The notes below the pieces were generated by a model that worked only from the letters and a program-made list of their open reading frames with translations, was not told the DNA's origin and did not search any database. A stretch of DNA of 64,000 nt from a virus. Of this stretch, positions 21,161 through 21,228 are shown piece by piece. Each line of letters starts with the position of its first letter. The stretch's first letter is position 1. A program made the translations under genes and the position numbers. The DNA lies in IMG/VR virus record IMGVR_UViG_3300045988_047070; one strand, 5' to 3'.

Positions 21161-21228
21161 AGTGTAATAGTTTAATGGTAGAACGTAACATTTTTGTTAA
21201 AGTGAGAGTTCGAATCTCTCTTACACAC
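21161..21228 (+). tRNA. tRNA-like element with truncated anticodon arm (68 nt), twin of 10646..10711
   Basis: My fold is AGTGTAA-TA-GTTT-AATGGTA-GAAC-G-TAACA-TTTT-TGTTA-AAGT-GAGAG-TTCGAAT-CTCTC-TTACACA-C. It has the same architecture, including the A1/A72 mismatch and C73. Confidence 0.55.

Follow-up and report, generated by a model that had tools for sequence, protein, structure and literature searches.

A tRNA-shaped RNA element that lacks an anticodon loop lies at positions 21161-21228, on the + strand, of the DNA analysed here, a stretch of 64,000 nt from IMG/VR virus record IMGVR_UViG_3300045988_047070 (the window). It is a real, conserved, tRNA-derived and non-decoding element, and it belongs to a small family of such elements in Suoliviridae phages. 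Its structure, conservation, covariation, position, strand and missing anticodon loop are all shown below. As to function, the best reading is a punctuation signal that acts in cis and is cut by host RNase P and RNase Z. We give this reading a probability of roughly 0.45, slightly short of an even bet, with transcription, cleavage and any effect on expression being inferred.

The window derives from a Suoliviridae crAss-like phage of the gut and is about 96% identical to the uncultured crAss-like phage cr10_1 (NC_055875; Crassvirales, Suoliviridae, Boorivirinae, Canhaevirus; from human faeces), the identity over the 1.8 kb around the element being 95.9%. Genes on the + strand span 1-34.4 kb, the early and replication block, and the giant virion and RNA-polymerase genes lie on the - strand from 34.4 to 64 kb. 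The element starts 7 nt past the stop codon of one ORF and ends 44 nt before the ATG of the next; an earlier reading made without database searches (the sequence-only reading) had put the second gap at 45 nt. Rfam matches at the gathering threshold in the window, all of them on the + strand, are a Hatchet ribozyme, a RAGATH-9 RNA, a group I intron and three matches to the tRNA model.

20494-21153, + strand: upstream ORF of unknown function, annotated as 177 aa in cr10_1, C terminus ...KAKAAA, stop codon 7 nt before the element
21273-22121, + strand: downstream ORF of unknown function, 282 aa, C terminus ...RAAAAA, ATG 44 nt past the element
7322-7448, + strand: Hatchet self-cleaving ribozyme, Rfam 102.7 bits, in a comparable intergenic position of the same gene block
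8302-8480, + strand: RAGATH-9 RNA, Rfam 94.8 bits, ending 25 nt before the ATG at 8505
9637-9920, + strand: group I intron (Rfam, gathering threshold)

Between the two flanking ORFs, no promoter or terminator signal rose above shuffle expectation in a scan for sigma-70-type promoters and intrinsic terminators, the scope of which excludes Bacteroidales and phage promoters.

Several other features of this genome deserve mention in their own right. Two perfect hairpins stand right after stop codons, GUGCGUC-GAAA-GACGCAC at 22125-22142 and a 10-bp hairpin at 20541-20566; both are preceded by an A run on the + strand, so that they score as terminators for the opposite strand only. Roughly 2 kb, at 15822-17900, contain neither a coding-strand ORF longer than 66 aa nor an Rfam match, and large unannotated structured RNAs or introns are possible there. 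The DNA polymerase ORF of the window ends at an in-frame TAG (23501). In the region noted there, 23501-24331, the ORF that comes after the polymerase stop (23600-24220) matches endonuclease VII / HNH homing-endonuclease PHROGs, and the cr10_1 polymerase CDS is an unbroken 1950 nt; the polymerase of the window strain is likely to be split by an intron or a mobile insertion. Outside the window, a retron-type reverse transcriptase gene is annotated in cr10_1 at 64930-65970 (L374 5931-6971), presumably as part of a diversity-generating retroelement.

The element reads AGUGUAA-UA-GUUU-AAUGGUA-GAAC-G-UAACA-UUUU-UGUUA-AAGU-GAGAG-UUCGAAU-CUCUC-UUACACA-C (21161-21228, + strand) and divides into the following parts.

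21161-21167 with 21221-21227, + strand: acceptor stem, six pairs and an A1·A72 mismatch
21170-84, + strand: D arm GUUU-AAUGGUA-GAAC, preceded by U8 and A9 and followed by G26
21186-21199, + strand: middle hairpin UAACA-UUUU-UGUUA, a 5-bp stem with a UUUU tetraloop at 21191-94
21200-03, + strand: connector AAGU
21204-20, + strand: T arm GAGAG-UUCGAAU-CUCUC
21228, + strand: discriminator C73

The structural criteria of a tRNA are met: a 7-position acceptor, a D arm with G18G19 and a T arm with a UUCRANY loop and the G53-C61 pair. All nucleotides of the tRNA core are present (U8, A14, A15, G18, G19, A21, U48, G53, U54, U55, C56, A58 and C61), with U48 as the Levitt partner of A15. The Rfam tRNA model (RF00005) scores the element at 54.1 bits against a gathering score of 29 (E = 7.5e-9 over the whole window) and matches every tRNA position except the anticodon loop, where four model positions face a single residue. 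The resemblance to tRNA is far beyond chance. The cloverleaf is also the ViennaRNA minimum free energy (MFE) fold of the isolated 68-mer. Its folding energy (z = -1.33) is not exceptional for an AT-rich sequence, and with flanks included the MFE is a different fold (z = -0.41). Because the folding energies are uninformative and the flanked fold differs, support for the cloverleaf is comparative, resting on model scores and related sequences, not thermodynamic.

As a decoding tRNA the element fails. It lacks the 7-nt anticodon loop, U33 and an anticodon conserved among orthologues, and ARAGORN reports it as 'tRNA-???' with a two-base 'anticodon (tt)', the product of a forced 6-nt loop and not a canonical call. 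The acceptor carries U3-A70 and so lacks the G3·U70 of tRNA-Ala; there is no G-1 as in tRNA-His despite C73, and no long variable arm as in the Ser, Leu and Tyr tRNAs. These gaps in identity elements argue against aminoacylation, an inference from sequence alone. By structure, the element is a member of the tRNA family, and one incapable of reading codons. No other Rfam family, self-cleaving ribozymes and tmRNA included, matched at the element locus, either at the gathering threshold or at E<=1.

The sequence-only reading had proposed exactly this fold, which coincides with the 68-mer MFE, and had described an anticodon-less tRNA-like element; both claims held, the second on the Rfam alignment, the ARAGORN output, the MFE fold and the comparative data. 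It had named two results that would refute it, a canonical tRNA call and absence of the element from related genomes. Neither came about, as ARAGORN gives only 'tRNA-???' and the element occupies the same slot in relatives.

It remains conceivable that the element works as an adaptor, be it an unusual tRNA that decodes or shifts frame with a 6-nt loop, or a tmRNA-like domain that is aminoacylated. In favour of this idea, ARAGORN is able to force the 6-nt loop, the phage encodes a tmRNA and upstream ORFs end in runs of Ala. We consider it very unlikely: the loops of orthologues are wholly different (UUUU, UUUUU, GAAA and UACG) in arms of 12 to 16 nt, U3-A70 stands in place of G3·U70 and C73 comes without the G-1 of His, and the tRNA-like domain of the tmRNA is located elsewhere by ARAGORN, with no match here to an Rfam tmRNA family.

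Conservation was assessed in 80 related IMG/VR loci obtained by anchoring on the neighbouring DNA polymerase, which worked better than anchoring on the 282-aa ORF; the latter reached only the lineage at about 50% identity and a weak cr50_1 match. Orthologues occupy the same slot in three lineages, around 1.06 kb upstream of the polymerase, between a 177/219-aa ORF and its downstream neighbour, which in two lineages is the 282-aa ORF.

Lineage a, the window's own group: sequence as in the window element
Lineage b, L123-126, polymerase 88% identical: UUGUGUA-UA-GUUU-AAUGGUA-GAAU-A-UCUC-GAAA-GAGA-AGAU-AUGAG-UUCGAGU-CUCAU-UACACAA-C
Lineage c, L017, L018, L122 and L128, 282-aa ORF only 50% identical: GUGUGUA-UA-AUUC-AACUGGAA-GAAA-U-GAUUCU-UACG-AGACUC-UAUAU-ACAGG-UUCGAAU-CCUGU-UACACAC-A

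Comparison of lineage a with lineage c shows double-sided changes in four of five T-stem pairs, and across the lineages the two acceptor strands have shifted register together by one step, which keeps seven positions. The middle arm has been replaced wholesale, each time by a clean tetraloop-capped hairpin (UUUU, GAAA of the GNRA type or UACG of the UNCG type), and its total length is 14, 12 or 16 nt. Nucleotides of the tertiary core are conserved; the loop sequence and the arm length of the middle hairpin are not, and its tip is therefore not a recognition site.

A covariance model was built from family members, as the sequence-only reading had suggested, and scanned over the window and the loci of the 80 relatives. 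It found three copies in the window and 96 matches in the relatives, every one of these 96 on the coding strand, and members of the family generally end 14-57 nt upstream of a start codon. Among 17 distinct members, 94.1% of cells are paired and 14 of the 21 pairs are altered on both sides. The covariation score is 0.681 compared with 0.222 when shuffled (none of 500 shuffles reaches the observed value) and at most 0.21 with slid partners, with the caveat that the alignment was fitted to the model.

Within lineage a, selection is visible at closer range. In an alignment of 31 distinct haplotypes, none of the 42 stem positions varies. Variation within the element is confined to five unpaired columns, namely position 26, R57 of the T loop, two positions of the connector and a tetraloop column with an inserted U. 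In the same haplotypes the flanking ORFs vary at 68 of 446 (upstream) and 77 of 456 (downstream) columns, that is 15-17%, mostly at third codon positions, which beside the element vary at about 28%. The RNA structure is under purifying selection and is not a decaying pseudogene.

These data bear directly on two rival explanations. According to the first, the element is a functionless tRNA pseudogene in neutral decay. Many tRNA calls in phage genomes are 'undetermined' (PMC10879173), and the D arm does match the tRNA-Gln type. This is nonetheless very unlikely given invariant stems next to third codon positions that vary at about 28%, compensatory changes at two-thirds (14/21) of the pairs across lineages, and the clean GNRA and UNCG tetraloop replacements, which random decay does not yield. 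The second holds that the element is a DNA-level signal, such as an attachment site, an origin or a packaging site, that merely resembles a tRNA. Phage att sites do often overlap tRNA genes. The evidence all but excludes this possibility: the compensatory double substitutions preserve RNA pairing, G·U pairs included, on one strand only; no integrase is annotated in cr10_1; and att sites hold only the 3′ part of a tRNA, identical to the host copy.

Directly after the element comes a further conserved sequence.

21229-21247, + strand: conserved 3′ box TCCGTTACAAATTAACATT, occurring once in the window

All three lineages of orthologues retain the box, whichever ORF lies downstream, and 21229-21236 are invariant in the 31 haplotypes. 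A role as a trailer, a processing signal or a leader signal is possible. When the box was scanned as a pattern, in case it were a trailer common to tRNAs, most matches were unrelated or due to chance, and a few were canonical tRNAs followed by AAATCCGTTACAT. This sequence, which resembles the box, follows canonical tRNA-Tyr-like and tRNA-Ile-like genes in unrelated viral contigs (L316, L317 and L321).

Element and box together could form a cis-regulatory leader of the downstream ORF, in which alternative pairing, or protein binding between the D-arm region and the box, controls translation or stability. The presence of the box in all three lineages despite the different downstream ORF speaks for such a leader, as does the flanked MFE fold, which pairs the D-arm region with the box. 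Weighing against it, the flanked fold is no better than shuffles (z = -0.41), plain conservation of both partners leaves the D-arm/box pairing without support from covariation, and the copies at 10646 and 4395 have no box. On balance we regard a leader as unlikely.

The element is not alone in this genome. The covariance model finds three full copies in the window, at 21161, 10646 and 4395, all on the + strand, and a more divergent tRNA-shaped element lies beside the polymerase gene.

10646-10711, + strand: paralogue (p-type, the 21161 copy being a-type), Rfam tRNA 46.9 bits, middle hairpin ACUGA-UUAU-UCAGU, A1·A72, C73
4395-4473, + strand: third full copy, with acceptor strands UUCUGUG/CACAGAA, a D loop of increased size, CCCU-GCUA-AGGG as its middle hairpin and a T arm of canonical form
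22147-22224, + strand: more divergent in its tRNA shape, a four-way junction with T loop UUCGAUU, lying 19 nt before the polymerase ATG

The copies at 10646 and 21161 have in common the A1/A72 mismatch, C73, a D arm identical but for Y16, a hairpin of 14 nt whose tetraloop is rich in U, and the connector xAGU. The sequence-only reading had claimed them as paralogues whose stems differ yet remain paired, and this held in every listed feature; what it missed is the context of the 10646 copy, which is separated by 28 nt from the stop codon of a tmRNA tag ORF on its 5′ side and by 20 nt from the ATG at 10732 on its 3′ side. Population variants of the middle stem at 10646 read CUGA/UCAG, CUGG/UCAG and CUGG/CCAG. 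That reading counted two copies; the third, at 4395-4473, scores 37.3 bits with the Rfam tRNA model and 44.7 bits with our own model (R1), and looser scans added more degenerate elements. These tRNA-shaped or T-arm-like elements, at 5974-6073, 12444-12498, 22147-22224 and 30891-30950, are all on the + strand, have UUCGAAU, UUCGACU or UUCGAUU loops with a G-C closing pair and are intergenic except for 12444-12498, which overlaps the end of ORF 11991-12467.

At 22147, the acceptors covary across three lineages (GGAAGAG/CTCTTCC, GGTAGGA/TCCTACC and GGATAAC/GTTATCC), as do the T stems, and the loop or insert of the middle arm runs from 7 to about 28 nt. This slot 5′ of the polymerase holds a tRNA-shaped element in nearly all of the 80 relatives. 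One group has a canonical tRNA-Arg(UCU) there; in others the middle arm is non-canonical, either GCUA-GAAA-UAGU with a tetraloop cap, GCUAC-UAU-GUAGU, for which ARAGORN forces a 'tRNA-His(AUG)' with a mismatched stem, or a longer form. One relative has, upstream of its polymerase, a tRNA-like element with an insertion of about 50 nt in the anticodon-arm region (L172 3850-4000).

No tRNA with a normal anticodon was called by ARAGORN or the model in the window or in cr10_1 2587-99985 (97% of that genome), only 'tRNA-???' and tmRNA, and decoding is therefore not the selected feature. Over this scanned sequence, the phage keeps several tRNA shapes and no decoding tRNA. In the first 50 kb of crAss001, a cultured member of Steigviridae, the model matches only the annotated canonical tRNAs, so that this phage is not a ready experimental system for the element.

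The sequence-only reading had also proposed that a 10-nt motif of the element, GTGTAATAGT, recurs at about 16757 and 19000, possibly as decayed copies. The recurrence held, the second part failed. Exact copies lie at 5080, 16758, 18999 and 21162, all on the + strand, four against 0.36 expected and a count reached in none of 100 shuffles. The flanks of the copies at 5080, 16758 and 18999 show no tRNA-like features, L114, a relative with 99% identity, lacks the 18999 copy, and divergent orthologues do not keep the 10-mer. We rejected these copies as decayed elements on the basis of their flanks and the relatives; the over-representation is without explanation.

The gene next to the 10646 copy is of interest in itself. 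The window encodes a permuted, two-piece tmRNA at 9690-10617.

up to 9704: exon 1 of the 3′ tRNA domain
9705-10409: intron
from 10410: exon 2 of the 3′ tRNA domain
10514-10520: 5′ acceptor strand GGGGCUG
10573-10617: tag ORF

In cr10_1, ARAGORN finds the tmRNA with acceptor GGGGCUG/CAGCUCC, which includes G3·U70, T arm GAGGG-UUCGACU-CCCUC and the tag GNNFVTDYTQLAVA followed by a stop. A variant in L037 has the tag GNTFVTDYTALGAA, likewise followed by a stop, and three synonymous changes, by which the tag frame looks translated. In the window, ARAGORN misses the tmRNA because a group I intron of about 705 nt splits its T loop; a minus-strand ORF of 174 aa (9848-10372) lies inside this intron. 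Splicing after U9704 and G10409 would rebuild the T arm GAGGG-UUCGAUU-CCCUC, a prediction from sequence alone. Identity as a tmRNA domain was considered for the family and rejected for the 21161 element; at 10646, ARAGORN puts the true tmRNA domains elsewhere.

Separately, six predicted proteins have Ala-Ala C termini (KAKAAA, RAAAAA, LLTAA, IKKAA, DDRAA and ETPAA), their ORFs ending at 21153, 22121, 24220, 30016 and 32312 on the + strand and 63504 on the - strand. The poly-Ala tail of the 282-aa ORF is unchanged even at 50% protein identity, and tRNA-shaped elements directly follow two of the ORFs with such ends. The tails resemble ssrA-type degron ends, which is noteworthy in a phage with its own tmRNA.

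The combination of D arm and T loop points to the source of the element. Scanned in 185,579 bacterial and archaeal genomes, the pattern GTTTAAYGGTAGAAC ... GTTCGAATC gave at least 120 matches. Among 120 of these the spacing is always canonical (26 nt in 119 and 27 nt in one), and tRNA-Gln(CUG) accounts for 117. Scanned in viral contigs, this pattern also yields short-spaced forms, mostly copies like that of cr10_1. Occurrences outside this phage include the following.

L020, unrelated phage: CGC-AAAA-GCG, within a tRNA array
L022, unrelated phage: CAGAG-CUAG-CUCUG
L068, unrelated phage: tetraloop-capped tRNA-like element adjoining tRNA-Met
L363, metagenome: GCGCC-AGCA-GGCGU
L348, metagenome: no middle arm whatsoever

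The element is tRNA-derived, the likely source being a gene of the tRNA-Gln type. By these pattern scans, tetraloop-capped derivatives arise repeatedly in phages and were not seen among the cellular matches.

How might such an element act? RNase P, RNase Z and the CCA-adding enzyme read the stack of acceptor and T stem together with the elbow, and do not read the anticodon. In the punctuation model, the element would be a gene-internal relic of a tRNA gene, with a D arm of the tRNA-Gln type, retained by selection as a non-decoding tRNA-shaped RNA and transcribed within a polycistronic + strand transcript of the replication module. It would have retained the parts read by host tRNA-maturation enzymes (the 7-position acceptor on a 5-bp T stem, the G18G19/U55C56 elbow, U8-A14 and the A15-U48 Levitt pair) and exchanged the anticodon loop for a short hairpin with no fixed length or sequence. 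Host RNase P would cut on the 5′ side, at 21160/21161, and RNase Z or another 3′ processing activity would cut after C73, at 21228/21229. These cuts would separate the mRNA of ORF 20494-21153 from that of ORF 21273-22121, leave the downstream mRNA with a short, A/U-rich, unstructured leader and define the 3′ end of the upstream message or, at 10646, of the tmRNA coding piece. They would also release, as a by-product, a stable RNA some 68 nt long that probably carries an added CCA.

Several lines of evidence favour punctuation in cis. First, the top half and the core are conserved and the tip is free; the element sits in a gap close to a stop and a start codon with no detected promoter or terminator signal, and Hatchet and RAGATH-9 lie in equivalent slots. 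Second, the 10646 paralogue falls exactly at the junction of the tmRNA coding piece and the next ORF. Third, the polymerase slot interchanges a canonical tRNA with non-canonical and tetraloop-capped derivatives. Fourth, family matches in the window and the 80 relatives are all on the coding strand, usually within the distance from a start codon given above. The boundary criterion of t-element and mascRNA-type signals, a non-decoding fold between units on the sense strand, is met here and likewise in the 80 relatives.

The case has gaps. Transcription and cleavage are without direct evidence, only DNA assemblies being searchable. Canonical phage tRNA genes use the same type of intergenic slot, so position alone cannot separate a signal from a stable-RNA gene, and the tetraloop-capped tRNA-like elements inside the tRNA arrays of unrelated phages (L020 and L068) seem not to need punctuation. 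A cut 7 nt past a stop codon, along with a 5′-monophosphate on the downstream RNA, could destabilise the messages. No relative was found with a known self-cleaving ribozyme in place of the element (14 representative loci searched at the Rfam gathering threshold), and the model leaves the conserved 3′ box at 21229-21247 unaccounted for.

The main rival is a role in trans, which is possible. Here the released RNA of about 68 nt would itself be the functional product, a tRNA mimic or decoy for a host factor that binds the elbow or the acceptor, for instance a tRNA-targeting defence nuclease or nucleotidyltransferase, a modification enzyme or a translation factor; being non-decoding, it would be harmless to translation. 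Phage tRNAs evade anticodon nucleases through changes in the anticodon loop (PMC10264068, PMC13056530), and a tight tetraloop removes the usual target of these enzymes. Also in support, the entire three-dimensional core of a tRNA is conserved, beyond a minimal RNase P substrate, there are three full copies per genome with different stems, and similar elements occur within the tRNA arrays of unrelated phages. Against a decoy, there is to our knowledge no candidate for the host target; the bacterial tRNases in the cited literature cut the anticodon arm, the very part lost or altered here; no single-stranded recognition sequence is conserved apart from generic tRNA loops; and the interchange with a canonical tRNA in the polymerase slot better fits a cis role that depends on shape only. 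In a bolder version that we can only raise as a possibility, former tRNA genes of Suoliviridae crAss-like phages have given rise to a dedicated family of tetraloop-capped, non-decoding RNAs acting in trans, several per genome and with no decoding tRNA left, as decoys for tRNA-directed immunity or partners of the two-piece tmRNA, for example. If true, the family would represent a new RNA class with which phages counter defence or hijack translation.

For the punctuation reading, the closest working analogies are the t-elements, mascRNA-type RNAs and the tRNA-like genes of herpesviruses; the likeness is one of analogy, and cleavage in the phage is inferred. t-elements are tRNA-like structures at the ends of plant mitochondrial mRNAs, where RNase P and RNase Z cut. 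They too are non-decoding tRNA shapes in polycistronic transcripts near ORF boundaries, with acceptor and T arm kept and the anticodon function lost. They are often much more degenerate, whereas the element of this Bacteroidales phage is a complete, tRNA-faithful cloverleaf for which cleavage is undemonstrated. The tRNA-like RNAs of MALAT1 (mascRNA), MEN-beta and the gammaherpesvirus MHV68 are processed by RNase P and RNase Z, receive CCA, are not aminoacylated and define the end of a neighbouring RNA. They share a tRNA-like fold with a shortened or atypical anticodon arm; they differ in being eukaryotic and nuclear, whereas the phage has several copies per genome with a stable tetraloop cap.

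Other known systems are more distant. Canonical phage tRNA genes (RF00005) resemble the element in its score above the gathering threshold, the same D and T loops and the same type of coding-strand intergenic slot, but the element has no 7-nt anticodon loop, U33 or anticodon, and its loop is unconserved between orthologues. The tRNA-like domain of tmRNA is also an anticodon-less tRNA mimic, and the same phage encodes a two-piece tmRNA that the 10646 paralogue abuts; unlike that domain, the element has a 4-bp D stem and a middle arm, no G3·U70 and no linked tag ORF or resume signal. RNase P has non-tRNA substrates, among them the precursor of the C4 antisense RNA of P1 and P7, the M3 RNA of phi80 and intercistronic sites in E. 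coli operon mRNAs. In these, host RNase P matures a transcript that is not a tRNA, as is inferred for the element, but they mimic only the stack of acceptor and T stem, in contrast to a full tRNA-derived cloverleaf. We found no description of anticodon-less tRNA-like elements in phages in the full-text literature searched; a paper on theta ribozymes only lists 'undetermined' tRNAs (PMC10879173).

Few viruses of the human gut are as abundant as the crAss-like phages, whose gene expression is poorly known. In the phage studied here, one gene block combines tRNA-shaped RNAs with a Hatchet ribozyme, a RAGATH-9 RNA, a group I intron and a phage tmRNA. tRNA finders call elements of this kind 'undetermined' or force an anticodon on them, which misleads analyses of phage tRNA content and of stop-codon recoding. 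If the punctuation reading is true, these phages recruit the tRNA-maturation machinery of their hosts for purposes other than translation, and the element would be the counterpart, in a bacterial virus, of mitochondrial tRNA punctuation and of mascRNA.
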